From Patescibacteria group bacterium (GTDB lineage Bacteria > Patescibacteriota > Minisyncoccia > Phycocordibacterales > UBA2100), in contig JBBTXY010000019.1 of assembly GCA_038062075.1 (NCBI GenBank), forward strand, positions 1 through 60,687: 60,687 nt of DNA. The letters run 5' to 3'. The position numbers were made by a program, and so were the translations under genes. Of this stretch, positions 19,686 through 52,596 are shown piece by piece (within the stretch, counting starts at the first letter, position 1; every line of letters begins with the position of its first letter). The notes below the pieces were generated by a model that saw nothing but the letters and a program-made list of their open reading frames with translations, did no database searches and was not told where the DNA came from.

Positions 19686-19820
19686 ATGAAGCGAAACTAC
19701 CAACCGAAGAAGAAAAAGCGAGCCACAACGCACGGATTCCGCGCGCGTCTGAAGACGAAAACAGGGATGCGGGTTCTCGCGCGCCGTCGCCGGAAGGGGC
19801 GCGCACGACTTGCGCTCTAA
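19686..19820 (+). CDS. rpmH: 50S ribosomal protein L34
   Basis: Hand translation gives [44 protein letters not shown]. At 44 aa it is below the ORF-track cutoff. Its stop overlaps the rnpA ATG (TAATG). Confidence 0.9.
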
Positions 19821-20941: not shown

Positions 20942-20987
20942 AAAGGCTCTATTTGGTAGAGCGCGGGTTTCGTGGTAAACAAAGGGC

Positions 20988-21473: not shown

Positions 21474-21505
21474 TTGTCACAAAGTGTTTGTATGTTGGCT
21501 GGCGC

Positions 21506-21856
21506 TTATTGGCCTTTCACGGAGCGGAGAATGTTGAGGTTAAGAATATCGGGGTTGATCTGATTAAGAATGAGCCAGACGCTGAGTAGGAGAAGAAGGC
21601 CGAGAACAGCTTGACTGATGATCTCGCGCGCATTTTGTTTCTGCTGGAAAAGATCAGTCGTCATGTATTTGAAACCAGCGTAGCCGAGGCGCAGAACCGC
21701 AAGTATCGCACCTATTGCAAGCGCGGTGTAGAAGAGCGCGGAGAAAAAGTCCGCGAGGCTCGAATTGGGGTCGAAGAGCGCCGAGAGTTGCGACGGCTGC
21801 ACTGCCGTTTCTTGGAGCAGGACCTGTCCGAGGGGTGGTTGTGTATTCGGGTCCAT
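21506..21856 (-). CDS. TrbC/VirB2-like pilin candidate (two-TM hairpin protein)
   Basis: 116 aa with two hydrophobic helices (FFSALFYTALAIGAILAVL and AVLGLLLLLSVWLIL) separated by a basic loop. It is the last gene of the VirB4 operon, 2 nt after the previous stop. Confidence 0.45.
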   Translation of the reverse strand: MDPNTQPPLGQVLLQETAVQPSQLSALFDPNSSLADFFSALFYTALAIGAILAVLRLGYAGFKYMTTDLFQQKQNAREIISQAVLGLLLLLSVWLILNQINPDILNLNILRSVKGQ

Positions 21857-21858
21857 AG

Positions 21859-23118
21859 TTATTCAGCGATGCGCAGAAGCCACAGCGACTTATCACTCGC
21901 ATTCATGAAGGCGATGTAGTTCCCACTCTTATCGATCACGGGGCGCTCGACGTCGATCGCGGTCGCGTTGTTCATTGCGAAAAACTCTTCGGCTGTTCCA
22001 GCACTTCCGTCGACAACGTACCACGAGTCGGTCGTGTGCACGGTGCCGCGATACCAGTTGTCCAGGAAATTCGTTCCCGTCGGAGATTGTGGGACGGCGC
22101 AGTAAGCGACGAGTGTCCGCGTGGTAGTCGAGGGAGCATTGTCCGAGCGCGCCTGCGGCGCCCATGCGCATTTCTCTGCAGTGGTCGGAGTGGACGAGAG
22201 CGGAAGCAGAGTTCCCGTAGCCGATGTTTTCACCGCGAGGGAGAGCCCCGCGCCGCTATCGGTGCCGATGAGAAGTGCCTCCGAGCTTGCATGCGGGAGG
22301 AGCGTCAGGCCGGGGACCCCGCGCATAAGCGGCGTGAGGGTGCCGCTTATGCTCACCTCATATGCGTTCCCGAGGATACCGCTTGCTGCGCGCTCGACGA
22401 GGACTATGCGTCCATCAGAGAGAGGCGCCAGCTTAAAGTCTCCCGCGGCAAGCAAGAGTATCTCTTTCGCGCCAGTGCCGTCGAGCTTGGTGCGAACGAG
22501 ATGGGTGCCTGCCGCATCCGATACGATGAATGTCAGCTCGGTGCCGGAGAGAAACGCGATGTCGGAGATATGTGCACCGAGATTTACTCCTTCGAGCGCG
22601 AGGAGGCCGTCCTCGGTCGTGGTGCCGAATTGTCCCACAAACGTCGTTACCGCGTCATCCCTGAGGAACCGTTCGATGACGGTCTCGCCCTGCACGTGCG
22701 CAGCATATATTTTCGGAAGAAGGGTATTCGTCCGGCGGACGACGGTGCCGCCTTCAGGGTCGGCGTCGAAGACGTGCCCCGTCGAGCGCTCGACGAAGCG
22801 CACGAGGGACGACGTGCCATGGGGAACGAAACTAAATCCTGCGATCGGTGTTGCGTTCACGTGCCAGAGGCGCGGTGGGCGCGCACCCCCCTTTTTCTCA
22901 GAGCTTGCGCGTTCGCCGAATCCGGAGACGATGTTCTCGACGGTCGAGCCGCGCGAGCCGGCGAATGACGGGATACTGATATCGAAACCGCGCGCGAGGT
23001 CCGTCCCCTCGATGTTCGCGGTCTGCCGTGAGATGAAAAAGTACCAACCGGCAAGGCCAAAGAGAAGAAGAGTGATGGCCGCGAATCCGATGTAAGTGAA
23101 CGTGCGCTCGTTGGGCAT
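21859..23118 (-). CDS. membrane-anchored protein, possible beta-propeller (PD40/TolB-like C-terminal repeat); function unknown
   Basis: The start is taken at MPNERTF, 4 nt after the upstream stop. N-terminal TM segment, and C-terminal DKSGNYIAFMNASDKSLWLL resembling a PD40 repeat. Confidence 0.45.
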   Translation of the reverse strand: MPNERTFTYIGFAAITLLLFGLAGWYFFISRQTANIEGTDLARGFDISIPSFAGSRGSTVENIVSGFGERASSEKKGGARPPRLWHVNATPIAGFSFVPHGTSSLVRFVERSTGHVFDADPEGGTVVRRTNTLLPKIYAAHVQGETVIERFLRDDAVTTFVGQFGTTTEDGLLALEGVNLGAHISDIAFLSGTELTFIVSDAAGTHLVRTKLDGTGAKEILLLAAGDFKLAPLSDGRIVLVERAASGILGNAYEVSISGTLTPLMRGVPGLTLLPHASSEALLIGTDSGAGLSLAVKTSATGTLLPLSSTPTTAEKCAWAPQARSDNAPSTTTRTLVAYCAVPQSPTGTNFLDNWYRGTVHTTDSWYVVDGSAGTAEEFFAMNNATAIDVERPVIDKSGNYIAFMNASDKSLWLLRIAE

Positions 23119-23122
23119 AATG

Positions 23123-24169
23123 CTATTGATTTGTGAACGGATCAGTGCCGAAGATAGTCGCATTTCCCTGTATGAAGGTCAGCTGCCACGAGCCTGTGGC
23201 GCGCAGAAAGATGTCGGTGAGGCTCGTGAGCGAGAGCTCGATCGTCGCAGGGCCGGTGTAGTTGTTCGTGGTGATGAGGAGCGTGTGTGGTGCCTTTGGA
23301 TCGGGTGTGACGTTTTGGTCGTTCACGCGCCACACGTAGGTGAGCGACTGGTCGCGCGGCGACTCGACGTGGGCAAAGTAGGCAAAAGCAACAACTTCCT
23401 CTTCGGTCTCCGTCGTACGCGCGCCTGAAACGAGCGCGCGGTGGAAGAGCACCCCGAAGAGCGGATGGTTTTCGTAAAGCTCGAGCGAAGGATCCACTGA
23501 TTGAATGCGAGTGCGCGCTTCCCCGCGCAGCGTACCGTCAGTCGACTCTGCGACGACGCGGATATCGTCGGTCCCGAAAAGTGTTGGGCCGGGGAATGAG
23601 AACGATGACCTGCCGCGTCCGGAGGACATCCTGGTGTTCCCTTTGTACCACGTGTAAATGATGGATGTGTCGGGAAGAAGCGTGCCATTCGTTTGTTTGA
23701 ATCGCGCGAGCGCCTGCGCGCGGATAATTGCGCTCGTTCCCGGGAGCGCACGTCCCTCATAAAAGGGAGGCACATAGGAATCCGACTCCCACAGAAGATC
23801 GACCTCGGTGGGGCGGATCGTCGCTTGTGCGCTTCCGATAAGGCCCGCCTCATCCTCCGCAACGACCTCGACAGTCGTGCGTGAGCCAAGTGCTCCTGCG
23901 GTGACCGAGGCAGTCGTTACGCCGGTGCCGCGGGCAATTTCTTTCTCGTTCTCGTACCACACGACTTCACTACGATTAAGGTCGAGCCCGTAGCTCTGCA
24001 CGGTGAGACGCACGGTGTCTCCCGACATTGGGTACTCCGGCGTCATCGAGAGTGTAAGCGGCCGCTCGAGCCCCGTGAGTGAGAATTGCGCGCGCGCGGC
24101 AGGCGCATAAGCAAGGGAGAGGAGCGTGCCTGTAATAGTGAGAGAAACGAGAGAGAGGCGTGCGATCAT
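23123..24169 (-). CDS. secreted protein of unknown function
   Basis: Clear signal peptide (MIARLSLVSLTITGTLLSLAYAPAARA), beta-rich and repetitive. Its start overlaps the VirB4 stop by 4 nt. Confidence 0.5.
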   Translation of the reverse strand: MIARLSLVSLTITGTLLSLAYAPAARAQFSLTGLERPLTLSMTPEYPMSGDTVRLTVQSYGLDLNRSEVVWYENEKEIARGTGVTTASVTAGALGSRTTVEVVAEDEAGLIGSAQATIRPTEVDLLWESDSYVPPFYEGRALPGTSAIIRAQALARFKQTNGTLLPDTSIIYTWYKGNTRMSSGRGRSSFSFPGPTLFGTDDIRVVAESTDGTLRGEARTRIQSVDPSLELYENHPLFGVLFHRALVSGARTTETEEEVVAFAYFAHVESPRDQSLTYVWRVNDQNVTPDPKAPHTLLITTNNYTGPATIELSLTSLTDIFLRATGSWQLTFIQGNATIFGTDPFTNQ

Positions 24170-27100
24170 AGCGGCTGCGGGCCAGGCGGGAGCGGCGTCT
24201 GCGGCGGGATGATAGGGGCGCTTGGCGGAGGCTCAAGCGGTGTGCTGGCAGATAATGCCGAAGAAGAAGGTGGCGTTGTAGGAGGAGAGAACGACTGGAT
24301 TGGTGTGGGTGCCGGGGTGGGGATTGATTGAGGTGGAAGAGGCGATGGTCCTGGAGCGATTTCTGGCAGGGATTCGGATGCTGCTTGTTGCGGGACGCCA
24401 CTCATCTCTTTGAGCGCCGCCGCCTGCAGGGTCGCCGCAGCGCTTGAGACTTGGGTTCTCTCTGGCGCGGCAAACGCTTGTTCCGCGTCGAGTTCCGAGG
24501 AGCGCGCGAGTTCTTGTTTTGCCTTTTTGATGGCGAGGATCTGCGAGGGGTCGGACGTGATGATCTGGTCTTCGGTGTACGAGGCGATGACCTTAATGGC
24601 GACGTGCTTCAAGCCGGCGAAGAAAATCCCCTCCCCCACATCCGACTCCAACAACAAATATTTCTCTTCATCCGACAACTTAAACGTTTGCTGCACAAGG
24701 TCGACGGATGTGGGGGATTGGCGCAAAAGTATTTGGATCGATGAGTTGGTGATCATGGCAGTCCCGTAGGGTGAGGTCAAAAAGTCGTTCACGTCCTGCG
24801 TGATCGTTGAGAGACCGAGGTAGTATTTGCGGCCGCGCTTCGCGATACCGAAGAGGAAGGAAGCGGTGTCCTGCGATTTCATCATCCACCACGCCTCGTC
24901 GATGACGAGTAATCTCTTGCGCAGCTCTTTGCGCACCGTATTCCAGATGTGGTGCGTGATGATGTACATCGCGACGGGCTTCAGGTCATCTTCCATGTCG
25001 CGCACGGAAAAGACCACGAGCTTTTTGTTCATGTCGACGTTCGTCGGGCGGTTCATGAAACCCGACCAGGTGCCCTTCGTATACTTCGAGAGGCGCGCGA
25101 CCAAGGAGTCCGATCCCTCCATGCCGGAGAGGACGAGTTCGAAGTCGGAGAGAAGGGGCGGCTCGACGGACGCGAAGTTGGCTTCCGCAGTGATGTCTTT
25201 GAGCGCATAGGTTTCCGTGATTGCTCTGTCGATGACTGCGTCTTCTTCAGGCGTAAGGCCGCCGAGCATGATGCGGAAGAGGCCTACAAGCGTGATGATG
25301 TTGTTGCGCAGGATGTCTCCTGGACTTTCGTCCTCACGTGGAATGGGAAGATCGAAGGGGTTGATGTGGTGCTCGGAGGAGAGTGAAATATTAAAGTAGC
25401 GGCCGCCGACGGTCTCTGCAAGGTATTCATATTCACGTTCCGGGTCGATGACGATGACTTCCGTGTCGAACATGAGGGAGCGCAAAATTTCGAGTTTCGT
25501 GGTGTACGAGTTGTGTACGAACATGCCGCCGTGCCCTGCGAGAAACACCTCATCATCGACCGTAAGATCGTAGACGTACTTGTCTTTTTTGTTCGGCTTT
25601 TTGACGATCGACACGATCGGGTCCCAAAAAAGGTCTGCATTCGCGAGTGTCTTGAAGGTGGCAACGATTTCCTCGACGCGGTTCAGATTTTGCAGCGTGC
25701 GATGATACTCGTGCACGATGAATTGCGCCGCCGTGCGCAGGAGTTCGTACGACGAATTGTCACGCGTGCCATTGAGCGTTCGCGCCAAGTACTCATCAAA
25801 CCCGTTTGCATGAACATTAACTCGTTCGACGCCTTCCGAGATCATTCCCTTCAAGTCGTCGACCGTTTTAGGGGCATCTACCCCTGCAGTCTCGAATATT
25901 TTGAGCGCATTTTTCGTTCGTGGCGGCATACCTTGCTTTACGGTAAACCACGAACTGCTCAGTTTTTCGATAAGTGTGCGATTGAGCTCGCGATCCTCGT
26001 CGGCTTTTTTGACAATCGCTTCTACCGTCGGTAGATCTTGGAGTTTCTGCATGAAAGGATACAAGTCTTTGAACCTTTGCACGCGTGCCTCCATCATCTC
26101 GACGAGTTTTCCAAGCCGTTTCGGCGAGAGATCGTGTCCTTGCTTGAGTGCGGAAAAATCTGAAATGTCCGAGAGCTGCGTGTCAAAAAGCCCCGCCAGC
26201 TCCTGTGCAAGCGGCTGCAGTCCCGGGACGATGTCGCAATTGGTGTTTTCTACTTTCGTGGTAAGCCGCGCGAGCGCTTCTTTTTTGCGTGTTGAGATAA
26301 AACCTATGTGCTCCTGGAACTTGCGGAGATTGTCCTGTCCCGAGATGCTCATCTGCCAAAACGTCCGCTTGCGACCGGTTTTTGCGTATGTTTTCTGTCG
26401 TCGGTGAATCCGCACGATGATACCGAAGTAGTAGCACAGATAGGAAAGGTCTGAAATGAGTGCGCGTGATTTTGAAAGTGCAGTGACTGCGGCGCCATCT
26501 ACTCCACCGTCACCCTCGAAATAGGCACGGAGGTATGCAGCGACTGCTTCTCGGGGCGCATCGAATATGGGTCCCGCTACGTGCTTTTTGTGAGAGAGGC
26601 CTGCGCCTCGAATACCATGCACATAGTCGCGGAACGCGCTGCTGTAAATTGCAATCCACCGTGGATGGCTACCATGTCGAAGACTGAGTGCTGCGCAGCA
26701 GCGTTTAATGTCGGCAAGCCCCTCGGGGTCTTCATTACTAATAATAATAGAGCGGTCTGTGGTGCTTCCTTCGGCAGCGATCCAGCCAAGAAGAGCGCCT
26801 AAATCTGGAGACATCGGCGTCAGTGTTTGTGTGGCAGCAACCGTGATTGACCGTGGAAGCGGGATATACTCTCCCTCTTTCACATCCTCGCTTTTTGCAG
26901 CAACAACTCTCCCATCTCGCAAAACAAGCATATTGTGATCTGCTGTGGTTGTAATTTCGCGACCGCTTTTTGTTGTGAATGTGTAGTATGTGTCAGTGGC
27001 ATCCTTACGCGCTGCGACCGACACTTTACTCCAACGCCCTTTCATGTGCTTGTCGAAGCTAAATACTTCCACGTCGGGATCGATAACCCCCTCAAGCTCC

Positions 27101-28014
27101 TCATCAATTTGTGTCGCACCATGCTTCCGAATGAGTGCGTCGATATACAGGCCAATTTCTACGTTGCGAACCACTCCGCGGTCTCGCATCAGAACGCGTT
27201 CCTTGACAAATATCGATTTTCCCGCTCCGCTTTTTGCGAATGTGACCGAATTATAGTTCTCCAAACTAAATCGATCGAACAAAATCAACGACGAATTGTG
27301 TCGGTTGATGCCGTAGAGGATGCCGCGATCCGAGGTGAGGTCGAAGGAGATGAAAGGGAAAATAGATGAGAGCGGCGCGGAATTAAGCTTCGTGTGCACG
27401 TTGAGTTCATCAGTTGCGAGGGGCAAGACCGAGCGGAATCCTTGCTCCTGCTGGAAGAGTGCCGGGCGGATGTACACAAGACGGCTCTCAAGGATGGAGC
27501 GGATTTCTGATTCCACCTTATCAATATCCTCGCGCGTCGAGCCGTAAATGGTGAGGTAGAGACCGACTTCGAAAATGCGCTCTTGCGCCTGCTGGAGGGA
27601 GTCGCGCAGTTTTTCAAGGTCCGCGTAGGCGGTGTCGAGGATTGGGTCGCGCACCATGCCCTTCTCTTCGCGCGTCGCGATCTGGCTCTGCACCTCGGCG
27701 ACCTTTTTCTGGAATTTACGGAGCATCTCGTTGGTGTCCATTGGGTGGATGTAGATGGAAACATCGAGGACCTTGTCCATATTAATGATGGGTGCGAACC
27801 ACCCCGTGGTGAGAAATCTGGGGTAAGAAATGACGAAGAACGTGCGCGCGATTTTTTCGCCGAGATCAAGTTCGCGCGGGGATATCTTCAGCGCGTGCGG
27901 GGCGATAACGTCCTGAAGGCCGAGGACGCCCGTGCGATAGATTTCTTCCGGAAGGACCGGCAAGACCGTCGCCGGTTCGGCCGTTTTTCTGGTGAAGAAA
28001 TCAAAGAGTGCCAT
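24166..28014 (-). CDS. VirB4/TrbE-family type IV secretion ATPase, interrupted by an intein; Pro-rich C-terminal tail
   Basis: VirB4 N-domain pattern (ISYPRFLTTGWFAPII), Walker A KSGAGK|S split at residue 266/267, Walker B LLVIDEAWWMM, downstream GLSTITQD. The last ~90 aa are Pro/Ser-rich. Confidence 0.9.
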   Translation of the reverse strand: MALFDFFTRKTAEPATVLPVLPEEIYRTGVLGLQDVIAPHALKISPRELDLGEKIARTFFVISYPRFLTTGWFAPIINMDKVLDVSIYIHPMDTNEMLRKFQKKVAEVQSQIATREEKGMVRDPILDTAYADLEKLRDSLQQAQERIFEVGLYLTIYGSTREDIDKVESEIRSILESRLVYIRPALFQQEQGFRSVLPLATDELNVHTKLNSAPLSSIFPFISFDLTSDRGILYGINRHNSSLILFDRFSLENYNSVTFAKSGAGKSIFVKERVLMRDRGVVRNVEIGLYIDALIRKHGATQIDEELEGVIDPDVEVFSFDKHMKGRWSKVSVAARKDATDTYYTFTTKSGREITTTADHNMLVLRDGRVVAAKSEDVKEGEYIPLPRSITVAATQTLTPMSPDLGALLGWIAAEGSTTDRSIIISNEDPEGLADIKRCCAALSLRHGSHPRWIAIYSSAFRDYVHGIRGAGLSHKKHVAGPIFDAPREAVAAYLRAYFEGDGGVDGAAVTALSKSRALISDLSYLCYYFGIIVRIHRRQKTYAKTGRKRTFWQMSISGQDNLRKFQEHIGFISTRKKEALARLTTKVENTNCDIVPGLQPLAQELAGLFDTQLSDISDFSALKQGHDLSPKRLGKLVEMMEARVQRFKDLYPFMQKLQDLPTVEAIVKKADEDRELNRTLIEKLSSSWFTVKQGMPPRTKNALKIFETAGVDAPKTVDDLKGMISEGVERVNVHANGFDEYLARTLNGTRDNSSYELLRTAAQFIVHEYHRTLQNLNRVEEIVATFKTLANADLFWDPIVSIVKKPNKKDKYVYDLTVDDEVFLAGHGGMFVHNSYTTKLEILRSLMFDTEVIVIDPEREYEYLAETVGGRYFNISLSSEHHINPFDLPIPREDESPGDILRNNIITLVGLFRIMLGGLTPEEDAVIDRAITETYALKDITAEANFASVEPPLLSDFELVLSGMEGSDSLVARLSKYTKGTWSGFMNRPTNVDMNKKLVVFSVRDMEDDLKPVAMYIITHHIWNTVRKELRKRLLVIDEAWWMMKSQDTASFLFGIAKRGRKYYLGLSTITQDVNDFLTSPYGTAMITNSSIQILLRQSPTSVDLVQQTFKLSDEEKYLLLESDVGEGIFFAGLKHVAIKVIASYTEDQIITSDPSQILAIKKAKQELARSSELDAEQAFAAPERTQVSSAAATLQAAALKEMSGVPQQAASESLPEIAPGPSPLPPQSIPTPAPTPIQSFSPPTTPPSSSALSASTPLEPPPSAPIIPPQTPLPPGPQPL
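25510..27216 (-). mobile_element. 569-aa intein with a LAGLIDADG homing-endonuclease domain, inserted in the VirB4 P-loop
   Basis: Ser1 (SIFVKERV), block B TTADH, LAGLIDADG motifs LLGWIAAEGS and YLRAYFEGDGGV, and C-terminal VYDLTVDD...GMFVHN followed by +1 Ser. Joining the exteins restores GAGKSYTTK. Confidence 0.8.
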
Positions 28015-28019
28015 AGTGT

Positions 28020-28703
28020 TTATGCTTGCGTGAAGCCCTCGACGGGCATCGGCTTTCCTTCCTCGCCGGGGTTGAAGAGCTTGTAGAGGAGTTCGATCGC
28101 CTCTTCGGTCCCCAGCTGCACCGTGCGCACGCCACAGCGCACGAGGCCTTGTTGCACGATCGCGATACGCTGCTCAAGCTGCGAGACTTTCTCTTCGAAC
28201 GTGCGGTTCGTCTCTTCAGTGCTTCTCTTACTTGCTCTCCCGAATGGGAGCTTGTCTTTAATACTTCCTCCTTCGGCGATGGATGAGATGATGGCCGGCG
28301 AATATGGGACGACGACGAAGAAATTTTTGGTCATGATGTTCGCCGCTTCCGTGAAGCTCTTGATGAACTCAATGTATTCGCGTATTTGGATGCGCATCAG
28401 ATCATCAAGCTGGTTCTTGTAAGCAACCTCCAGGGTCGCGATGTACGGGCGGATATCGAGCATGCGCGATTGCACGAAGATCTGGCAGGAGAAATCCAGC
28501 GAATTGAGGAAATTCTGAAATTGCACGATAAAAGCGGTCTGCTCGTCTTCGGATTTGAGCGCGAAGTTGAGGGACGACGCGAGGAGGATAGCGCGCAAGC
28601 TTCCGTCGCGCATAACGACGATGCCATCACGCACTTCAGAGACGGGGACGAACCCCTGGGTGGTACGGTTGCTGGCGCGAATGGTTGAGGCTTCGGAGGG
28701 CAT
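28020..28703 (-). CDS. soluble protein of unknown function, resembles a stand-alone VirB4 N-terminal domain
   Basis: 227 aa with no TM segment. The pattern VSEVRDGIVVMRDGSLRAILLASSLNFALKSEDEQ...FQNFLNSL...QIFVQS parallels the N-domain of the adjacent ATPase. Gene gaps are 5-6 nt on both sides. Confidence 0.4.
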   Translation of the reverse strand: MPSEASTIRASNRTTQGFVPVSEVRDGIVVMRDGSLRAILLASSLNFALKSEDEQTAFIVQFQNFLNSLDFSCQIFVQSRMLDIRPYIATLEVAYKNQLDDLMRIQIREYIEFIKSFTEAANIMTKNFFVVVPYSPAIISSIAEGGSIKDKLPFGRASKRSTEETNRTFEEKVSQLEQRIAIVQQGLVRCGVRTVQLGTEEAIELLYKLFNPGEEGKPMPVEGFTQA

Positions 28704-28709
28704 AGATTT

Positions 28710-29216
28710 TTAGCGCACGATGGCGTCTTTGGCGGTGCGTACCGGTGCGACGATGTCGGGAAGGGGCGAAGCATTCTCCCGATCTACCGTGTCAGCAGTC
28801 CCTGCCGCGATGCGCTCCTTGATGTCGAGGCTCCAGGCGAGCTCGTGCAGTTTGCTTTCAGAAAGGTGCGGCACGTAGGGAGCGGCCGCTGGCGTTGTTG
28901 GCGCGGACGAAGCGAGTTTCTTCTGCGTCTCAAGAGCCTCTTCATTGCTCCAGAGGTAGAGCTTGCTCTTTATGAGGTAGAAGAATCCGTGCTCGAGAGC
29001 CGCGATGAAGGGTTGTCCGTTGTAGGTAAGGAAGGCGAGGGCCGCGCCAAAGCCGAGGAGGGCAAGGATAAGGGGACCGGCGACGTAGACAGGAAGCGTA
29101 CGCCAGAGCATGTAGCTTAAGCCCGCACTCCCCGCGAGGTAGACGAACTGCTTGAAGGTGAGAGGGCCAAAAATCTTGTCCTCGACCTCAATGAACTGTG
29201 GCACTTGAAACTGCAT
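28710..29216 (-). CDS. PrgI-family (VirB3-like) membrane protein
   Basis: The N-terminus MQFQVPQFIEVEDKIFGPLTFKQFVYLAG followed by two TM helices matches my recollection of PrgI-family proteins of Gram-positive-type T4SS. Confidence 0.6.
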   Translation of the reverse strand: MQFQVPQFIEVEDKIFGPLTFKQFVYLAGSAGLSYMLWRTLPVYVAGPLILALLGFGAALAFLTYNGQPFIAALEHGFFYLIKSKLYLWSNEEALETQKKLASSAPTTPAAAPYVPHLSESKLHELAWSLDIKERIAAGTADTVDRENASPLPDIVAPVRTAKDAIVR

Positions 29217-29220
29217 GGGA

Positions 29221-29675
29221 TAGCTGTCAGCTTTCAGCTTCTAGCTTTCAGGAAAAACGCATCCAACAAGCGCTAGTTGCTAGCCTTCAGTCCATTTATC
29301 ATACCATGCAACATACGGCAGACTTCCGACAAGAGTTGGCTGATTTCACTAAATTTGCTGTCATTGCAATACGAGAGCTTGTTGCTGATAATAAGTTGTG
29401 TTTCGAGTTCCGTGCCGGATCCAAGAGCCGTATGAAGAAAGTTTACAAAGTCTTTTGAGGTGCTGCGGCTTCGTCCTTCGGCAATATTCGATGGAATTGA
29501 AATGGCCGCCCTGCGCATTTGAGAAGCGAGTCCATACACTTCTCTCTGTGGGAAGTTTTCCGTGAGTTTGTATACCTGGATAACCAGCTCGATGGACTTT
29601 TGCCACACAAGCAGATCTTTGTATGACTGTGCTGTTTTCATGCCCGAAAGCTGAAAGCTGATACCTGAAAGCTAC
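29221..29675 (-). mobile_element. IVS-like cassette: four-helix-bundle gene bracketed by AGCTTTCAG/CTGAAAGCT inverted-repeat arms
   Basis: Left arm 29221-29252 (tAGCTGTCAGCTTTCAGcttctAGCTTTCAGg). Right arm 29645-29675 (cgaaAGCTGAAAGCTGatacCTGAAAGCTac). The right arm overlaps the stop codon of the upstream gene. Confidence 0.45.
29273..29641 (-). CDS. four-helix-bundle protein (23S rRNA intervening-sequence protein / S23p family)
   Basis: YKDLLVWQKSIELVIQVYKLTENFPQREVYGLASQMRRAAISIPSNIAEG...FLHTALGSGTELETQL is the characteristic pattern of this family. Confidence 0.85.
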   Translation of the reverse strand: MKTAQSYKDLLVWQKSIELVIQVYKLTENFPQREVYGLASQMRRAAISIPSNIAEGRSRSTSKDFVNFLHTALGSGTELETQLIISNKLSYCNDSKFSEISQLLSEVCRMLHGMINGLKASN

Positions 29676-30253
29676 TGTGGTGGTTCCCTATATGGATCAT
29701 CAACCACGGACTTTCGCTCAATCGATGCTTCGCCGGGCTTGTAGGCGCCCGATGCGGGCGCGCGGGCGACGGTTACTTCCGGCGGTGGTGCAGGAGGAGT
29801 CGCAGGTACAACTGGCGGCGGGAGGGGTTGTTGTACCGTTGCGGGAAGCGCTTCTTGTGTCCCTCCTCCCAAGATCTGCGTTCGAGCAGCCTCTACTCCA
29901 CTTACGGTTTCAGCCTTTGCTTCCGGATGCTCGAGCTGGCGCTCGAGTTCTGCTCTGATGGGTTCGAAGACGGTAGAGTTTATACTCTCCGCGAGCGCGT
30001 GAGCAATATCAAGTGTGACCCCCACTTCCCTCATGAGGTTTTTCTCAAAGTTCTCCACCGCTTCGATGCCAAGAAGGGTAAGCATCACCTCATTTTCAAG
30101 TGATTCCCATTGGTCCACATGTAGTTTGTGTGTATCTGCTAGTTGTCGTAGTCGCTTTTGGACGTCAGTTGATGTAATAGCGTCTTGAACCACCTTAGGC
30201 AGTTTCGAGAAGCGCTCCTTTATCAAAGTACTAAGATCTGATTCCTCGGGCAT
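29672..30253 (-). CDS. hypothetical protein with a Pro-rich C-terminus (operon member)
   Basis: 193-aa ORF with a helical N-terminal half and a PPPVVPATPPAPPPE tract. No family recognised. Confidence 0.45.
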   Translation of the reverse strand: MPEESDLSTLIKERFSKLPKVVQDAITSTDVQKRLRQLADTHKLHVDQWESLENEVMLTLLGIEAVENFEKNLMREVGVTLDIAHALAESINSTVFEPIRAELERQLEHPEAKAETVSGVEAARTQILGGGTQEALPATVQQPLPPPVVPATPPAPPPEVTVARAPASGAYKPGEASIERKSVVDDPYREPPQ

Positions 30254-30259
30254 AAGGTG

Positions 30260-32374
30260 TTAGTGGATCGTGGTTCCTCCATCGTGGGTCGGTGCCTTGG
30301 GGGGTGTGGGTGATTGCGCTGGCGCAGGCGTCTCTTCCTCAGTTGTTTTTTTTAGGTAGTCAGCAATTTTCTTAGCTTCTTTCTTTTCACCACTTTCCCT
30401 TACTGCTTTTCGTGCAAGTTTCGCTAACTCATCATTTTTCTCATCGATAGACACTCCGACAGCTTCCTTTAAAACATTGGTAAACCGTTTATTTGCAAGC
30501 GCAGAAGCGAGTGCTTCTTTCGTTTTCGGTAACGTTCCCGCTTGTTCAGCAACTTTGTGAAGTTCCGTAAAGGCTTTCTGTTGGGACGTCCGGGCTTGTT
30601 GAGTTGCGAGTCTTGCCTCCTCTATTCGTTGTTTCTCACGTTGCATTGCAGCAGTGTGTTCAGTACGTGTGCGGTTCATTTGATCTTTTATGTCCTCAAT
30701 ATCCTTCTTTGTTCTTTCTGTTGAATGCATGGTGTCGCGCAAAGTGACATTTTCCAAATTGGTCGTCAGTTGCTGCATGTTCTTCTCGAATGATGAAACT
30801 GTTTCTGCCTGGATGGCCGTTAGTCGCTCGATTTGCTTTTCTCCTTCTCGGACCGTCGCCGAAGCTTCTGCATGTTGCTTGCCTAATTCTGGCGCTCTCT
30901 TCATTGCGTCTACTATCGCGGCGCCGAATGCCTGCTCAGTTTCTTCCTTTGATAGCCCCATTCGTTCTGCTTGTTCAGCGTAACGTCCTGCTCGAGCTTT
31001 TTGTGATCCCTCAAACCCTTTCACAGCTTTTCCGGCGAGAGTATCAAGTTTTTTCAAGCCAGGAACGTTTCCGACCAATCCATGCACCTCTTTACCGAAG
31101 GTAGTGCGCATAAGATTCATATCTTGCTTCGCGAGGCCTTTGAATTGTTGTGCACCAAAATCGTATAATTGCCTGGTCCATAAAGATTTTGTCGTGTCTT
31201 TTGATACGTCTTGCATCTGCCTTCCTACCCACGCACTTCCTCGACCGATAGTTTGACGGCCGGCGAATGCAGCAGCCCGGGCAAATAAAGCTGTGCCAAA
31301 TGCCGGTACCACAGCTGCCCAATTAAATCCGACAATTTTCGTGGAGAACGCGCTCGCGAAACGGATACTGCCGAAGAGCATTCCGAGAATGAGGAAGAAA
31401 GTTAGGAGTGCCATGATGCCTGAGCCACTGGTGGGGTTGGAAAAGAGCTTATCGAACGACCGGTTCGCTCCCGGCCCTTCCACGAGCGCGTATGAGATGA
31501 TAAGCGTCGCCCAGAGCATGAGCATAAGGAGGGGGGCGAAGACCGCGTTGCGCAAGAGCGAGCTCCACCACATGTCCCAGAATTTATCTCCCCACTTCGG
31601 CACAAGATGCGCCGCGAAAGCGAGTGACGAAACGACCATGAGGAATATGAACAAAATAGTGCGGGCAATGAGAAGAAAAATGGCGTAGAAAAGGACAAGG
31701 CCTGTGGCAACCATGATCGTCGCCGTAGTAAAACTGTATGCGATTGCCCAAACGCTGCCGGAGAGCCATCCATCTTGCGCATCGTAGACGGACCTGACCG
31801 TACCATACGCCTGAAGGGCGTCGTTCAGGCCAAGGAGTTGGACGAATCGGCCGGAAATACCAGCTTTGCTCGCGTAGTCGAGAACGCCGGGCGCTTCACT
31901 GCCTGCGGCAGCAGCAGAATTGGTAAGGGACTCAAGGGACATGGCCGAGTAGAATTTGCCCGCGACGAAATTCGAGCTCGCAATGATGATGCGCGTGAAG
32001 AGCAGGCTGAAGTTGATAAGGACGGCGATGATGAGAACACGTGCAATGAGTTTCCGGGCACCAAATGATTCGATACCAAGGATCGTTGCGATAGCAATGA
32101 AGGTGAACATGCCGATGATAACGATGTTCGCGATGTCGCGGAAAGCCGTCCACACTTCACCGAGTCGGCCCGCGATAGCGGAGTATATCTGGCTGTCGAA
32201 CTGCACGACGAAGAACGTAAGGGTGTGGTCAAGCGCCATCCCCATAAAAGCAACGAATATTCCCGCCAGGTTGATGATCCCCGCGCCGATTGTTGCGGGG
32301 GCAAGGATTACGCCGACGGCGGCAAGGAGTGCTGGCAGTGGCAGTAGTGGTAATAGGAGTGCGAGGGCAGGCAT
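30260..32374 (-). CDS. polytopic membrane protein, VirB6/TrbL-like candidate, with a long coiled-coil cytoplasmic tail
   Basis: The start is taken at MPALALLLPLLPL, 4 nt after the upstream stop. About 400 aa contain many TM helices, followed by ~300 aa of charged heptad-like sequence. Confidence 0.45.
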   Translation of the reverse strand: MPALALLLPLLPLPALLAAVGVILAPATIGAGIINLAGIFVAFMGMALDHTLTFFVVQFDSQIYSAIAGRLGEVWTAFRDIANIVIIGMFTFIAIATILGIESFGARKLIARVLIIAVLINFSLLFTRIIIASSNFVAGKFYSAMSLESLTNSAAAAGSEAPGVLDYASKAGISGRFVQLLGLNDALQAYGTVRSVYDAQDGWLSGSVWAIAYSFTTATIMVATGLVLFYAIFLLIARTILFIFLMVVSSLAFAAHLVPKWGDKFWDMWWSSLLRNAVFAPLLMLMLWATLIISYALVEGPGANRSFDKLFSNPTSGSGIMALLTFFLILGMLFGSIRFASAFSTKIVGFNWAAVVPAFGTALFARAAAFAGRQTIGRGSAWVGRQMQDVSKDTTKSLWTRQLYDFGAQQFKGLAKQDMNLMRTTFGKEVHGLVGNVPGLKKLDTLAGKAVKGFEGSQKARAGRYAEQAERMGLSKEETEQAFGAAIVDAMKRAPELGKQHAEASATVREGEKQIERLTAIQAETVSSFEKNMQQLTTNLENVTLRDTMHSTERTKKDIEDIKDQMNRTRTEHTAAMQREKQRIEEARLATQQARTSQQKAFTELHKVAEQAGTLPKTKEALASALANKRFTNVLKEAVGVSIDEKNDELAKLARKAVRESGEKKEAKKIADYLKKTTEEETPAPAQSPTPPKAPTHDGGTTIH

Positions 32375-32378
32375 ACGT

Positions 32379-34034
32379 TTATTGTCTCCACGCGTTGAAC
32401 CACCGTTCAACGACTGCTGTGTTGTTTATATTGCACCACCCAATATTCGAGTCAGTGCTGTCCCCCCAGGATTTGATGGTGTCGGTGACAAGGGTGCCCA
32501 CTGCGCTCACGACGTTATCGCGCTGGGTTGCCGCATTTGTCGCGTCGGCGGCAGTGTGGAGCTGACGGTTCGCGACCATCGTGTCGAGCCGCAGAAGGGC
32601 CTGTTGCTGGTTGGCTTGCGAGGCGCTGTTCGTGACACTTGCGATGAGTTGGTTGAGGATCGCGATAGTTGCATCGGAAGCACGGATGTCGTTAATTGTC
32701 GTGGTTGCGAGCGGGGCTATCTGCGAGTCGATGATTTGTTGCGAGAATTGGGTTGAGGTCGCGATGTTGAGGGTCGGATTTCCGTTCGCTTGAGCATAGG
32801 TTTGCACTGCGGGAATAATGAGGCCCCAGCATTGGTTCTCGGCGCTGCGCAGCTGCTGTATCGCATTCGTAAGTGCAGTTGCAATTCCCTCTTTCGCTTG
32901 ACGATAGGTGAGTTCGATTTGACGTGCCGCGCTAATAACCGCGAGCGCGGCGTTCGTTGCTTGCTGCCGTACGTTTGCGCCGGTCTGCGACGTCATGCGA
33001 TCGAGGTACGACGGCTGGCCGTTCAAGGATTGCGTGAGACCAATAAGTCCGCGAGTATCCGCGACAAGTTGTGTCGTGAGGCCGCCGAAGAGGTTGCCAA
33101 CAACTTGATCGATCTCATTCGCGGTTTCAAGCTGGCGGAAGCCGGAGCCGATAACCTGCCCGACCGACTGCGCGATAATGTATCCAGGGGTAAGCACGCG
33201 TTCGGCAAGTGGGTCTTCCGTGTTATCAGTAAGCGGGAAGACGCCATTTCCCCAATCGAGCATTTGCCGGATGTTACGGTCATATTTGGCGAGATCGGCG
33301 TTGATTTGCGCTTGCGTGACCGCGGTCGCACCGAATACGTTTCCACTGGGTCGTATGGTGTTGAACCAGTTGCCATACGTAAATCCCTGGTTTTGCTGGC
33401 TTGATGCGGCCGGAAATGGGCATGAATAGATGCTCGTTGGATTATTGAAGGTCCGTGCGTAGTTTCGCGCAAGCGCGTTCTGGACGGTTCCCTTGAACGC
33501 CTGGCACATCGCCGACTGGTTCATTCGCTGTATATCTGCGACAACCACTCCGATCATCGGGGGGGTTAGGTCGAGGTCGAAATTCACCAGATACTGAGGA
33601 TTCCCGCCCCGACCGGCGTTGAAGGCTCTGAGTTGAGTCGCAGTGTATTCTGCCGAGATATTTTCGGCAATTTTTCTTGTGACGCCATCAAGGATGCATT
33701 CTTTATAGACGAGAAAGCCGGTGTTTAGGGTTACCGCGGCATCGTTGACGGGAACATAGATGCCGCCAATCGCTGAAAGCGTTCCTACGTTTGCAACTTG
33801 CGCGCCGAGGCCTCGGCATCCATAGATACCGTCATTTGAAAGCGTTTGTCCCGTTGGGGTGGTTACGGGTACTCCAGGCGTTTTGCTTTCAATGACACAA
33901 GTCTGAGGATTTTGAGGATCATGTATCATCCCGGGGGCGCAGTGGTCGGATAATGCGACGTGCGGTAGTGAACCGATACAGAAGGCACATACTCCAAGAA
34001 GAGATGCTATACGTGCGATGTTAATTTTCGACAT
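32379..34034 (-). CDS. secreted protein of unknown function (Gln/Asn/Thr/Ala-rich helical C-terminal half)
   Basis: Signal peptide MSKINIARIASLLGVCAFCIGSLPHVALS. No family recognised. Confidence 0.45.
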   Translation of the reverse strand: MSKINIARIASLLGVCAFCIGSLPHVALSDHCAPGMIHDPQNPQTCVIESKTPGVPVTTPTGQTLSNDGIYGCRGLGAQVANVGTLSAIGGIYVPVNDAAVTLNTGFLVYKECILDGVTRKIAENISAEYTATQLRAFNAGRGGNPQYLVNFDLDLTPPMIGVVVADIQRMNQSAMCQAFKGTVQNALARNYARTFNNPTSIYSCPFPAASSQQNQGFTYGNWFNTIRPSGNVFGATAVTQAQINADLAKYDRNIRQMLDWGNGVFPLTDNTEDPLAERVLTPGYIIAQSVGQVIGSGFRQLETANEIDQVVGNLFGGLTTQLVADTRGLIGLTQSLNGQPSYLDRMTSQTGANVRQQATNAALAVISAARQIELTYRQAKEGIATALTNAIQQLRSAENQCWGLIIPAVQTYAQANGNPTLNIATSTQFSQQIIDSQIAPLATTTINDIRASDATIAILNQLIASVTNSASQANQQQALLRLDTMVANRQLHTAADATNAATQRDNVVSAVGTLVTDTIKSWGDSTDSNIGWCNINNTAVVERWFNAWRQ

Positions 34035-34944
34035 GTGCAACATAGAATTTCGCCAATGCATCAAACGCGAGAAACATTTCTCGCTCGTCTTCATTATACG
34101 TTCTTAAAAGCGCCGCGGTGGCTATTGGGTCATTCGCGAAGCGAACAAGCCGCTCCAAGGTTTCCGTAAATTTCCCGAGTGCATTTACGGCACGCAGGTG
34201 CGTCTCGATCGCGCTTGCAGGAGTGGATACCGCGAGCATGGCGTGCTCGACGTCTCGGTAGTTTTTCGCTGTTGCAGACAGTTTGTCGAGCCATGAGGTA
34301 TCCTCCGTCGCGATGAAGCGTGCGAAGATCGTGAATTCCGGCTCGGCGGAGAAGTCGACCATACGCGCGGTCGCTTCCTGCATATCGGCACGGTAGCGCA
34401 GGATACGCTCTTGTGAGGTGTCGGCATCGATGATGAGCTCATCAGTAGTGTGCGGCATGAATATTGCGGGGGCACGCAAGTTCGTCGCGATCGTCTGCGC
34501 CAACTGTTCACCGCGCGCCGGCGTGTACTGGTTGTATTCTTTGAGCGAAAGATAGCCACTTACGACCGATTGCAGAACACTGCTTCCCATAGTTGCAAGG
34601 GGGTCTTGCGGGGCGGCAGGTGCTGCGGGTTCGGTTGTTGTTGCGATTGCAATGCCCGCTTCTGCAAGTGCGTCACGCCAGTCGGGAACGCCGTTTCCGT
34701 CAGCATCCTCGATCGCTATGTAGGTTTGCCGCTCTGCCGGCTTGCGTGATTCTGCAACAGCCACAACCTTTTGCGCTTGTGTCGCACTGCCAATATACGA
34801 GCCGATGGCGGCAATAAGAACAGCAACCGAGAGCGCGGCAGTAATGGCAATCGGAGAAACTCCGCGAACATATTTCGCATCCACAGGAGAATTATACCTC
34901 GTCCTAGAATCCTGCACTGACGTTGGCATTGAACATAAAGACAC
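34021..34944 (-). CDS. membrane-anchored protein of unknown function (start uncertain)
   Basis: Single TM segment (SPIAITAALSVAVLIAAIGSYIG). Alternative starts are ATG at 34929 or GTG at 34884, the latter preceded by GGACGAGG. Confidence 0.4.
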   Translation of the reverse strand: MSLCSMPTSVQDSRTRYNSPVDAKYVRGVSPIAITAALSVAVLIAAIGSYIGSATQAQKVVAVAESRKPAERQTYIAIEDADGNGVPDWRDALAEAGIAIATTTEPAAPAAPQDPLATMGSSVLQSVVSGYLSLKEYNQYTPARGEQLAQTIATNLRAPAIFMPHTTDELIIDADTSQERILRYRADMQEATARMVDFSAEPEFTIFARFIATEDTSWLDKLSATAKNYRDVEHAMLAVSTPASAIETHLRAVNALGKFTETLERLVRFANDPIATAALLRTYNEDEREMFLAFDALAKFYVAHVEN

Positions 34945-35947
34945 TGCCCGGATCCGATGAAGAAAAGGTTATGTTATTGGCTCCGAAGAGGGCGACAAGC
35001 ATCAAAAATCGCTTGGTGAGCTCCTCCACACTCGCATTGTACGTCGCTATTGTATCGACGAATGCTTCATCCGTCGTCGTTTTCGCGACGTCTTCGAGTG
35101 CAAAGCCTATCGCCCGGTAGGCATTCGCGTAGGCCTTATGCATGCCCGAAGCGGCGCTCGGCACATAGTCCATCTCAACGAGACTTCTCCCGAACTCTTG
35201 CATGTCAAAGGCAAGCCGCTCAAGTGCGGCTATTTTTTGCGGGTTCGTGCGGTCTTCGACGTGGTCTTTGAGGATCTGCGCTCCTGAACGATGGGTGTCC
35301 TCGAAGTCTTTGATGTAGGTCCCGATCTGGTTGCCGTACTCGTGGAGGCTCGATTCTTGGCCGACGACGACCGTTCGTGATTCGTTTGAGGTCTTAGTGC
35401 TGATAAGGCCTTGCGGGATGAATGCAAACGCGTCAGATGTTTCCTCTACTCCTACTCCCCCGCTGGAGCTCGGGGGCTTCGTGAGAAGGGCAAGAAGTGC
35501 TGCGATGTCATCCGGTTCTTCCTCCCCTCCTTCTTGTTGGGTATCTTGGGGTTTTTTCGGGAGCGGGATGAAAGGAACCGCGTGCCCGGCGGATTGCACG
35601 TAGGTAATGTCTTCTGCGCTTGGCCGATAGGGTGCCTGGGCGCGCAAGTTGGCGAAGAACAGCCCGCCCGCCCCTCCCCACGCACCGCTTGAGTCCGCGG
35701 GGTTCACGTCCGTTCTTTGGAGGAAGAGCACGCCGCCGAAGAGGAGAAGCCCGACGATACCGATAGCGGCGGCAAGGTACGGGTGTGCGTGTATCCAGCC
35801 GGGCTTTGAAGGAGTTTCGGTAACTACTACTTCAGGCTCCTGCAGAGGCTCTACCCCCGCGATCATTTTTTGATAGTCGCCGCCTTCGTGGAGCACCATG
35901 TGCATAGTATACCCTTGTGTACCTGCAGAGCGGTGTACAATGTGCAC
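34904..35947 (-). CDS. membrane-anchored protein of unknown function; first gene of the operon (start uncertain)
   Basis: Single TM segment (YLAAAIGIVGLLLFGGVLFL), an acidic linker and a helical C-terminal domain. Alternative ATGs at 35905 and 35899. Confidence 0.4.
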   Translation of the reverse strand: MHIVHRSAGTQGYTMHMVLHEGGDYQKMIAGVEPLQEPEVVVTETPSKPGWIHAHPYLAAAIGIVGLLLFGGVLFLQRTDVNPADSSGAWGGAGGLFFANLRAQAPYRPSAEDITYVQSAGHAVPFIPLPKKPQDTQQEGGEEEPDDIAALLALLTKPPSSSGGVGVEETSDAFAFIPQGLISTKTSNESRTVVVGQESSLHEYGNQIGTYIKDFEDTHRSGAQILKDHVEDRTNPQKIAALERLAFDMQEFGRSLVEMDYVPSAASGMHKAYANAYRAIGFALEDVAKTTTDEAFVDTIATYNASVEELTKRFLMLVALFGANNITFSSSDPGSVFMFNANVSAGF

Positions 35948-36268
35948 ATGCGTGTTGCTGCTATTCCTATAATCGTCGGCGCTCTCTTGCTCGTCCTACC
36001 TTTTTCAGTATACGCATTCCCCTTTGGGGGACAGATAACGACCATTCGGCCGTGCTACAACAACGCGATCTACGTGTTTCTCTCGCCGCCGCGCGGCGGC
36101 CAATACATCTGGACGCCCGCGACGCGCACGTATCAGTTCGGGCCGCCGCGCCACGTCGGCCAGTGGCTCTTGGGGCTTGCGAGCGCTCCCTACTACTGCG
36201 TCGTCTCCATTTTCCCGCTTATCGTCTGGCCGGGGACGAACATCGACATGATGGGCAGCAGCCAGTAA
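35948..36268 (+). CDS. small secreted 2-Cys protein of unknown function, divergent from the operon
   Basis: The start is taken at MRVAAIPIIVGALLLVLPFSVYA (signal peptide). The mature part is about 80 aa. Confidence 0.45.
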   Translation: MRVAAIPIIVGALLLVLPFSVYAFPFGGQITTIRPCYNNAIYVFLSPPRGGQYIWTPATRTYQFGPPRHVGQWLLGLASAPYYCVVSIFPLIVWPGTNIDMMGSSQ

Positions 36269-36269
36269 T

Positions 36270-36628
36270 CAAAGAGTGCCTTCGCACTTTTTGATACGGA
36301 GCTGCTGAGACGGAGACATGTTTCGCCAGCAGGCGAAACAGTCGAGTCGGGGTCGCGGAAATTTCCGAGCGGCGGCGAGGAAATTATCTGTGACCAAGCA
36401 GTAACAAACAGTGCCTTCGCACTGTTTTGTACGGCGAACTCGGGCGGAGCGATGTTTTTGCCAGCAGGCAAAAACCGCGAGCCGTGGGTGAGGCGCGGGT
36501 TAAGGAGCGCCGCAAGGACGGAGCGCGACGGCGCGAGGCGGGGTCGCGCAGCTTTTCAGCAGAAAAAGCATGCGTGACAGGAAATTTTTTCGTAGCGACG
36601 AAAAAATTATCCGTGCCTAGCCAGTAAC
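36270..36628. repeat. two tandem, diverged copies of a three-hairpin element (unit 1 36270-36405, unit 2 36406-36628)
   Basis: Shared blocks: AGTGCCTTCGCACT (36275-36288 and 36410-36423), GTTT(T)(C/T)GCCAGCAGGC..AAAC (36320-36339 and 36454-36475), CGGGGTCGCG, a GGAAATT hairpin (36360-36385 and 36583-36608), and ATTATC(T/C)GTG..AGC(C)AGTAAC. Confidence 0.6.
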
Positions 36629-52493: not shown

Positions 52494-52531
52494 GACGATA
52501 TTGTGCGACGCCTGTGTCGCACAATATCGTC
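52494..52531. promoter_or_regulatory. perfect 16-bp-stem palindrome (terminator and/or operator) upstream of xerC/D
   Basis: GACGATATTGTGCGAC-gcctgt-GTCGCACAATATCGTC. A third half-site ATATTGTGCGAC lies at 52565-52576, and TATAAT at 52585-52590. Confidence 0.5.
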
Positions 52532-52596
52532 AGGTTTTCCGACGCTTTTGCGTTGGAATAACTTATATTGTGCGACATGCACGGTATAATTGCTGG

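Follow-up and report, generated by a model that had tools for sequence, protein, structure and literature searches.

The 60,687-nucleotide stretch of a Patescibacteria group bacterium analysed here (the window; contig JBBTXY010000019.1) carries, in the chromosomal core beside dnaA, an operon of twelve genes that we assign to the type IV secretion systems (T4SS) of the Patescibacteria clade. With a probability of about 0.85, we read it as a monoderm machine, derived from the MPF_FATA class, that has been retained for the epibiotic lifestyle and has lost its role in conjugation. The assignment draws on its VirB4, on TrsD, PrgI and a pilin encoded in the same cluster, on the lack of a nearby relaxase or type IV coupling protein (T4CP) and on the proximity to dnaA. 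The system, its missing relaxase and its place near dnaA are already known, having been described between 2023 and 2025; the intein that splits the VirB4 gene is a detail that had not been reported. The locus is no new system, but a clean and fully syntenic example from the Paceibacteria.

A predicted secretion operon and its recognisable components

The cluster consists of twelve tightly packed open reading frames (ORFs) on the minus strand, all in one direction (21506-35947 in the ORF listing; genes without a family name are given g numbers, Table 1). An earlier description of this stretch made without database searches (the sequence-only reading) had reported these twelve packed ORFs, and an independent gene caller found the same 12 genes on the public copy of the contig (CAYIIW010000004.1, metagenome-assembled genome GCA_964363605.1), the sequence of which is also present in two Hainich H51 groundwater assemblies of the 0.1-µm fraction. 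Adjacent operon genes either share 26, 23 or 4 nt or are separated by gaps of 2-6 nt, and wider spacers, of 30 and 56 nt, are found only on either side of an inserted gene for a four-helix-bundle protein.

The ATPase of the cluster is identified as a VirB4 of the Gram-positive CD1110 type, and not as a HerA/FtsK protein, because it scores above the cut-off of NCBIfam conju_CD1110 (8.6e-103, 345 bits against a cut-off of 325), matches Pfam P-loop_TraG (6.6e-21) and has the VirB4 of T. pseudethanolicus (Thermoanaerobacter; PDB 4AG5, 2e-36) as its closest solved relative. The sequence-only reading had proposed a VirB4-type ATPase and had named HerA/FtsK as the family that would speak against it; the protein falls in the VirB4/CD1110 family. 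A tail of ~100 aa rich in P, S and T follows the ATPase domain, and VirB4, g08 and g09 all finish in Pro-rich low-complexity tails (24166-24480, 29672-29800 and 30260-30330, respectively). A search with the VirB4 sequence freed of its intein against one genome per species gave more than 591 loci, and the comparisons in this work use the best 80 of them.

The genes for TrsD and PrgI lie directly upstream of virB4. The TrsD/TraD-like protein, which the sequence-only reading had counted among its orphans, matched NCBIfam TrsD (9.6e-7) as well as the N-terminal regions of VirB4_plasma (5.3e-10) and CD1110 (4.3e-5), and its precomputed annotation is PF26593 TraC-like; it was compared across 78 loci. 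The PrgI/VirB3-like protein, also recognised in that reading, matched Pfam PF12666 (E 4.7e-10, 40.3 bits, cut-off 27), has a single long hydrophobic stretch (aa 40-67) and was found in 74 loci.

Three genes downstream of virB4 lies the pilin gene. The earlier proposal of a VirB2-like pilin at this position holds, the product matching Pfam T4SS_pilin PF18895 (E 1.8e-8, 34.8 bits, cut-off 26.6) and, weakly, the NCBIfam Mycoplasma integrative and conjugative element (ICE) pilin-like Mbov_0395 family. Pilin orthologues occur in ~60 loci and share the motif GLLLLL..YLILNQINP. A classical N-terminal signal peptide is seen in more distant orthologues (compared, for example, in L017:14184-14609), and distant loci have g03-pilin-g02 in place of the order g03-g02-pilin found here.

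The polytopic membrane protein g09 ends in a ~300-aa coiled-coil, Pro-rich portion that resembles coiled coils of the TolA type. Of the earlier VirB6/TrbL-like designation, the topology and the coiled-coil tail stand, while the TrbL homology is marginal: the window protein has no Pfam TrbL match, and a PDB profile search gave coiled-coil noise only and no VirB6. We therefore call g09 VirB6-like tentatively, by position and topology only.

Comparison with known systems

Quiñonero-Coronel et al. (2025, Microb Genom, PMC12102498) described a VirB4 clade of Patescibacteria, related to MPF_FATA, with adjacent TrsD, VirB3/PrgI, VirB6 and VirB2-like pilins of the PF18895 type. Relaxases were almost absent (only 103 Patescibacteria genomes had them), T4CPs were rarely nearby, and in Paceibacteria the T4SS was located close to dnaA, dnaN, rnpA, ksgA and rpmH. 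The present locus resembles these systems in its Patescibacteria-type VirB4 with adjacent TrsD, PrgI/VirB3, PF18895 pilin and, tentatively, a polytopic protein of the VirB6 type, in lacking a nearby relaxase or coupling protein, in standing beside dnaA, rpmH, rnpA and ksgA, and in having many unannotated neighbours. It differs from them in the intein within Walker A, in the cassette inside the operon that carries a 23S_rRNA_IVP gene and is similar to an intervening sequence (IVS), and in having a single pilin gene, whereas Saccharimonadia and Microgenomatia have arrays of 2-11 pilin genes.

With the MPF_FATA systems of Firmicutes and Actinobacteria (pGO1 Trs, pCF10 Prg, CTn2/CD1110) the cluster shares a CD1110-family VirB4, a TrsD-like protein of the pGO1 subclass, PrgI and a monoderm layout without VirB7/9/10. 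In contrast to them, its VirB4 is only 29-37% identical to theirs, it has a VirB2-like pilin, which the Gram-positive systems lack, and it is fixed in the chromosome core and not carried on a mobile element; it is also without a relaxase, a T4CP and an adhesin of the PrgB type, and no VirB8-like or VirB1-like protein is recognisable in it. The T4SS of Patescibacteria are the only monoderm T4SS known to have VirB2-like pilins. Of what characterises a conjugative MPF_FATA element, a relaxase and a T4CP were not detected within the 60.7-kb window, VirB8/VirB1-like proteins were not detected in the cluster, and location, repeats and composition give no sign of mobility.

Conservation and inheritance

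All of the best 80 loci belong to Patescibacteria (Kaiser-, Taylor-, Nomura-, Zambryski- and Adlerbacteria and other Paceibacterota). The order dnaA-(rpmH-rnpA)-yidC-jag, then pilin-g02-g03-VirB4-TrsD-PrgI-g08-g09-(g10-g12), then ksgA-uvrD recurs in ~80 species, so that neither the cluster nor its syntenic flanks are peculiar to this genome, and the placement in the chromosomal core beside dnaA and rpmH-rnpA-yidC-jag made by the sequence-only reading is confirmed. VirB4 identity among the 80 species is 74-94% (74-95% over the best segment), while the nearest plasmid VirB4s reach 29-37%. Over the same genome pairs, median identity was 79.5% for VirB4, 59% for TrsD, 53% for DnaA, 50% for UvrD, 47% for PrgI, 44% for YidC and 26-38% for the envelope proteins; VirB4 thus appears more conserved than DnaA, a comparison to be read with the ranking of the 80 loci by VirB4 similarity in mind.

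Among the main non-nested ORFs of at least 100 aa in the window, no family match was obtained for a relaxase, VirD4/T4CP, VirB11 or VirB8/9/10, as the sequence-only reading had stated, and the window holds no att-like or flanking direct repeats. GC content is 0.50-0.60 in the cluster and 0.47-0.60 in the rest of the window, again in keeping with that reading, which had likened the cluster to its flanks. These data mark the cluster as a system of the core genome that is inherited vertically, its motor strongly constrained and its surface parts evolving fast, and not as an ICE.

The intein in the VirB4 motor

The VirB4 gene is interrupted in the codons for Walker A, between GAGK and S, by a sequence classified as a class-1-type intein with a LAGLIDADG homing endonuclease. 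It matched Pfam Intein_splicing (8.4e-19) and LAGLIDADG_3 (2e-17), the TIGR models of the intein N- and C-termini and PI-PkoII (PDB 2cw7, 4.6e-15). All its motifs are intact: S267 (Ser1), the block B TADH, LLGWIAAEGS and LRAYFEGDGG, and the junction ...FVHN835/S836 (Ser+1). The Walker A "GAGKS" of the sequence-only reading is accordingly GAGK followed by Ser1 of the intein.

The predicted product of excision, FAKSGAGK-SYTTKLEIL, is the uninterrupted peptide of 10 of the 80 relatives and agrees with the Walker A consensus of the others, FAKSG[AS]GK-SY[AT]TKLEIL; in the DNA, the empty site would read GCAAAAAGCGGAGCGGGAAAA joined to TCGTACACCACGAAACTCGAA. The intein is identical across three independent assemblies and is found in none of the 80 related species compared, while a few VirB4 fragments of Yanofsky-, Andersen- and Paceibacterota hold inteins at the same Walker A site, with 32-66% identity. 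This distribution is the sporadic one of a homing element, as judged from these sequences. The VirB4 motor of this lineage would work only after the predicted protein splicing; that the allele is a pseudogene through failed splicing is argued against by the intact ORF and motifs.

Five VirB4 inteins, from Firmicutes and Proteobacteria, have been catalogued, insertion into P-loops is known generally and inteins of ATPases are most often found in the Walker A loop (Novikova et al. 2016, MBE, PMC4760082). The present intein resembles those P-loop inteins in being of class-1 type (Ser1 ... His-Asn / Ser+1), in its LAGLIDADG domain, in its Walker A site and in its sporadic occurrence among close relatives; it differs from the catalogued VirB4 inteins in residing in a chromosomal VirB4 of Patescibacteria. 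In the literature searched, nothing linked inteins with VirB4 of Patescibacteria or the candidate phyla radiation (CPR), and PMC12102498 makes no mention of inteins. Since VirB4 inteins and P-loop insertion are already on record, the finding is a new host lineage and not a new phenomenon.

Proposed working and alternative explanations

Much of the diversity of bacteria lies in the Patescibacteria. For the question of how they feed on their hosts, the T4SS, essential in the one species tested, is the leading candidate as host interface. In that species, Southlakia epibionticum, the cluster SEML1_0006-0019, pilins included, was found by transposon sequencing to be essential for epibiotic growth, and it has no recognisable coupling protein or relaxase (Wang et al. 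2023, Cell, PMC10633639). For a patescibacterium in culture that takes up RNA of its host, a 2026 preprint reports tubes that penetrate the host and may be T4SS pili. In the working that we propose for the present cluster, the VirB4 precursor would first splice out its 569-aa intein and so rebuild Walker A (GAGK-S), and the spliced protein, presumably a hexamer, would dock at the membrane through PrgI/VirB3 and TrsD, as homologous systems suggest. The polytopic g09, weak as its homology is, may supply the membrane channel, as VirB6/PrgH do elsewhere. VirB4 would drive the extraction of the VirB2-like pilin and its polymerisation into a tube or pilus that crosses the wall, where the g02 propeller, the g03 immunoglobulin (Ig)-repeat protein, g10 and g11/g12 would form the wall-spanning base and the tip. 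The tube would contact the host and move macromolecules between host and epibiont, by export of effectors or by import of host nucleic acid.

Several points weigh against this account. In Patescibacteria it is common for a T4CP homologue to be encoded at a distance from virB4 (PMC12102498), and our search for DNA-transfer genes covers one 60-kb contig. The evidence for essentiality comes from another class, the Saccharimonadia, and not from Paceibacteria. For no protein of the cluster was there a family or PDB match to a VirB8-like (PrgL/TraM, NTF2 fold) or VirB1-like protein. The pilin lacks a classical signal peptide both here and in the closest relative (L005). Only 2 of 21 g09 orthologues matched Pfam TrbL, at 5e-4, and none of 54 further relatives did, these being the ones scanned out of 10,012 cluster representatives that an exhaustive phmmer search collected for the g09 transmembrane (TM) domain at E<=1e-3. 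Finally, a promoter and terminator scan of 20900-36700 gave counts equal to the shuffled expectation and was uninformative on the limits of the operon, the boundaries of which are therefore drawn from gene spacing alone.

We consider it scarcely credible that the cluster is an ordinary ICE, or a conjugation system of plasmid origin, in which DNA transfer continues with a relaxase, T4CP and integrase encoded elsewhere. The families of VirB4, TrsD and PrgI were defined on Gram-positive conjugative elements, the distant T4CP homologues just mentioned would suit such a system, and a tyrosine recombinase, overlooked by the sequence-only reading when it saw no integrase in the window, lies 16 kb away. 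Yet this recombinase has the XerC/D domain pair and stands among housekeeping genes, the chromosomal position and housekeeping flanks of the cluster are the same in ~80 species, and its VirB4 is conserved beyond DnaA and remote from those of plasmids. The flanks that the sequence-only reading had thought might hold a relaxase, VirD4 and att sites hold none, the GC content equals theirs, and relaxases are rare in Patescibacteria as a whole in the 2025 survey. Synteny, the divergence of VirB4 from plasmid homologues and the lack of DNA-transfer genes thus support what that reading had proposed, a conjugation-independent surface or pilus machine derived from a T4SS.

A T4SS for DNA uptake, like Helicobacter ComB or archaeal Ced, would take in DNA from the environment or the host, as a source of nucleotides and for recombination. 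This would fit the lack of a relaxase and T4CP, the pilus-type pilin, the presence of comM, ruvABC and recombination genes nearby and the co-localisation of the T4SS with comF, recG and radA in the class ABY1 (PMC12102498); VirB4 also matched the NCBIfam model of CedB, but at 8.5e-7 and far below the cut-off, so that the score is negligible. We nonetheless judge competence an improbable function, as the window encodes a separate PilB-type ATPase and as Southlakia relies on type IV pili and ComEC for competence: deletion of comEC abolishes competence and leaves viability intact (PMC12857230), whereas the T4SS is essential, which argues against a competence role of the T4SS. A pure adhesion organelle, a VirB2-type pilus that, with Ig-repeat and propeller adhesins, keeps the epibiont attached to its host and translocates nothing, also seems unlikely to us. 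Its appeal lies in a pilin, an Ig-repeat protein and a beta-propeller that are all extracytoplasmic and in the missing coupling protein; but adhesion of Saccharibacteria is ascribed to type IV pili and dedicated adhesins, with the T4SS separately essential, and a core of the VirB4-VirB3-VirB6 type has here been kept under very strong constraint.

The macromolecular-exchange machine that we favour can be drawn further, into a joint proposal that we offer as a speculation with a small chance of holding in all its parts. The machine would be an import conduit, its tube entering the host and its VirB4 drawing in host RNA. The extracellular half would be built from the lineage-specific g10 family, g11/g12, the g02 propeller and the g03 Ig-repeat protein. 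Because the VirB4 gene ranks with the most conserved sequences of these genomes, the operon would have become a place to which the selfish elements infesting the rRNA genes of the CPR (LAGLIDADG inteins and IVS-like IVP cassettes) home. If this were true, intein splicing and processing of the cassette stem would add conditional control over an essential host-interaction machine. The locus allows a test of whether an intein gates an essential secretion machine, and the constraint on VirB4, the identity of TrsD, the modelled g02 and g10, the Ig-like g03 and the intein-split motor are targets for structural work.

A stem-bracketed IVP cassette inside the operon

The inserted four-helix-bundle gene matched Pfam 23S_rRNA_IVP (PF05635, 4.1e-40) and PHROG Avd (9.5e-11). 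Short tandem motifs make up the inverted repeat that flanks it on both sides (29222-29240 / 29648-29666), and in the RNA fold the terminal stem encloses the entire ORF. The duplex of its flanks has a dG of -46.3, against -27.1±4.2 for shuffled sequences, and among related loci flank duplexes with z<=-3 were obtained for 7 of 11 IVP-type genes and for 1 of 11 control genes. Only ~10 of the 80 loci carry an IVP gene, at three intergenic sites in different lineages (between g08 and PrgI, PrgI and TrsD, and TrsD and VirB4); examples are L014:8186-8557, L015:3604-3975, L028:8542-8904, L054:9565-9963, L066:5789-6148 and L031:2999-3382.

ORFs of the 23S_rRNA_IVP family are known from intervening sequences of CPR rRNA genes (Tsurumaki et al. 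2024, PMC11270868), and the literature on IVP genes was uninformative beyond this survey of rRNA insertion sequences. The cassette shares with those sequences the protein family PF05635 and the long stem formed by flanking inverted repeats, and differs in its place, which is not an rRNA gene but an mRNA operon, between genes that encode proteins. By its appearance, it is a stem-enclosed ORF of the rRNA-IVS type that has been inserted repeatedly into the T4SS operon; in the mRNA, the stem might serve as a site for RNase III. Together, the intein and the stem-bracketed IVP gene appear as selfish insertions in a highly conserved operon. A role of the Avd-like gene in a diversity-generating retroelement was considered and rejected, as the window yielded neither a reverse transcriptase family nor a template/variable-region pair of repeats.

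Accessory envelope proteins

Of the seven proteins called orphans in the sequence-only reading, most have indeed no family and TrsD is the only one that matched a known conjugation component, so that the set is not one of familiar conjugation parts; of the signal peptide, N-terminal TM segment or Pro-rich linkers ascribed to the seven, g08 lacks the first two. In the PHROG search of the cluster only a Hoc-like Ig match (g03) and Avd (the IVP gene) were found, and PDB profile searches gave nothing significant for g02, g10 and g11. The structural descriptions that follow are, as modest additions, the first ones for these proteins.

The AlphaFold2 model of g02 (pLDDT 89.3, pTM 0.82) is a propeller for which Foldseek returned 840 PDB matches at E<1e-3, all of them generic propellers, including TolB (7mx5, 1.7e-7); g02 has no Pfam, NCBIfam or PHROG family and was found in 65 of the 80 loci. 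For g03, present in 78 of the 80, a profile of 35 orthologues matched the Ig domains of T4 Hoc (3shs, 2.8e-4), and the protein also matched PHROG Hoc-like (3.6e-4) and, weakly, Pfam Ig_3. The g08 protein has no hydrophobic segment and no Pfam, NCBIfam or PHROG match; its C-terminal DPYRE (D186-P-Y-R-E190) is invariant in an alignment of 19 orthologues.

The model of g10 (pLDDT 79, pTM 0.54) has helices of up to 74 residues and gave no Foldseek PDB match below E 0.1 and no PDB profile match. Its 279 homologues are unnamed or "hypothetical", with Kaiser-, Parcu- and Paceibacterota as the named sources, and none has a Pfam domain save for one FN3 match. Kinship with MsbA or with toxins of the ClyA type (AhlC, AhlB, MakA, NheA) was rejected (E>0.1, TM ~0.1-0.2). 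The families of g11 and g12, the latter aligned from 8 orthologues, matched each other in hhalign over ~145 columns (probability 96.7%, E 3.3e-10), which identifies the two as paralogues sharing a C-terminal helical domain of ~145 aa that has no solved relative; by sequence profile they are helical and not NTF2-like. The divergent g13 has a signal-peptide-like N-terminus and no family match. Its divergent placement is shared by 12 close loci (41-71% identity), and nothing further ties g13 to the machine.

Table 1. Positions of the cluster genes, of the elements inserted among them and of selected neighbours in the window
Feature	Position	Strand	Description
VirB2-like T4SS pilin	21506-21856	-	116 aa, two hydrophobic helices
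g02	21859-23118 (longest ORF to 23163)	-	419 aa; N-terminal TM helix, disordered linker, predicted extracytoplasmic beta-propeller
g03	23123-24169	-	348 aa; predicted secreted, tandem Ig-like domains
VirB4 ATPase precursor	24166-28014	-	1282 aa, 713 aa once spliced; Pro-rich C-terminal tail
Intein with LAGLIDADG homing endonuclease	25510-27216	-	569 aa, VirB4 residues 267-835
TrsD/TraD-like protein	28020-28703	-	227 aa, free-standing homologue of the VirB4 N-terminal domain
PrgI/VirB3-like membrane protein	28710-29216	-	168 aa
23S_rRNA_IVP/Avd-like four-helix-bundle gene	29273-29641	-	within inserted cassette 29222-29666
g08	29672-30253	-	193 aa; soluble helical, Pro-rich region
g09, polytopic membrane protein	30260-32374 (longest ORF to 32410)	-	~7 TM segments in aa 12-377
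g10	32379-34043	-	554 aa; signal-anchored, Cys-containing, elongated all-alpha
g11	34021-34929	-	bitopic; N-terminal TM (aa 25-55) and C-terminal helical domain
g12	34904-35905 (longest ORF to 35947)	-	bitopic; first operon gene; TM aa 54-79 of longest ORF
g13	35948-36268	+	106 aa; small, divergently transcribed, predicted secreted, 2-Cys
dnaA	18017-19372		2.1 kb from the cluster
rpmH	19686-19820		followed by rnpA, yidC, jag
PilB-type T2SSE ATPase (type IV pilus)	4558-6252	+	
LysM-LysM-Peptidase_M23 protein	39630-40670	+	3.7 kb upstream of the operon
comM	40845-42392		
Xer-like tyrosine recombinase	52501-53496	+	Phage_integrase and SAM-like N-terminal domain, XerC/D domain pair

Chromosomal setting

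The cluster is convergent with rpmH-rnpA-yidC-jag (jag/R3H), and ksgA and uvrD lie on its opposite side, with ksgA adjacent. The dnaN-dnaA spacer contains three near-consensus DnaA boxes (17791-17936) and the cumulative GC skew turns at ~15-17 kb, which makes the label "origin-adjacent" a reasonable one for the cluster. If oriC is the dnaN-dnaA spacer, the whole 14.5-kb operon would be read head-on to replication; the orientation of the operon relative to dnaA is preserved in related loci. The remaining genes of the window are housekeeping genes, among them polA, tsaE, the PilB-type ATPase, an ABC transporter, ruvABC, a penicillin-binding protein, dnaN, dnaA, comM, PNPase, mgsA, the CCA enzyme and tRNAs. 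An Rfam scan of the window gave four tRNAs only, none of them in the cluster. The gene for the LysM-M23 protein recurs near the cluster in ~8 related loci, and its product, the wall hydrolase nearest to the cluster, could possibly stand in for the missing wall hydrolase of the VirB1 type.

The convergent spacer of 348 nt between g13 and ksgA (36269-36616) contains two direct-repeat units of ~135 nt, without an Rfam match, each with the hairpins AAAGAGTGC-CTTC-GCACTTTTT and TTTCGCC-AGCA-GGCGAAA. In its second copy, the latter hairpin is altered in a compensatory manner (TTTTGCC...GGCAAAA), and a piece of 35-63 nt of the spacer (36343-36405) is 86-94% conserved in three related loci (L007, L011 and L017).

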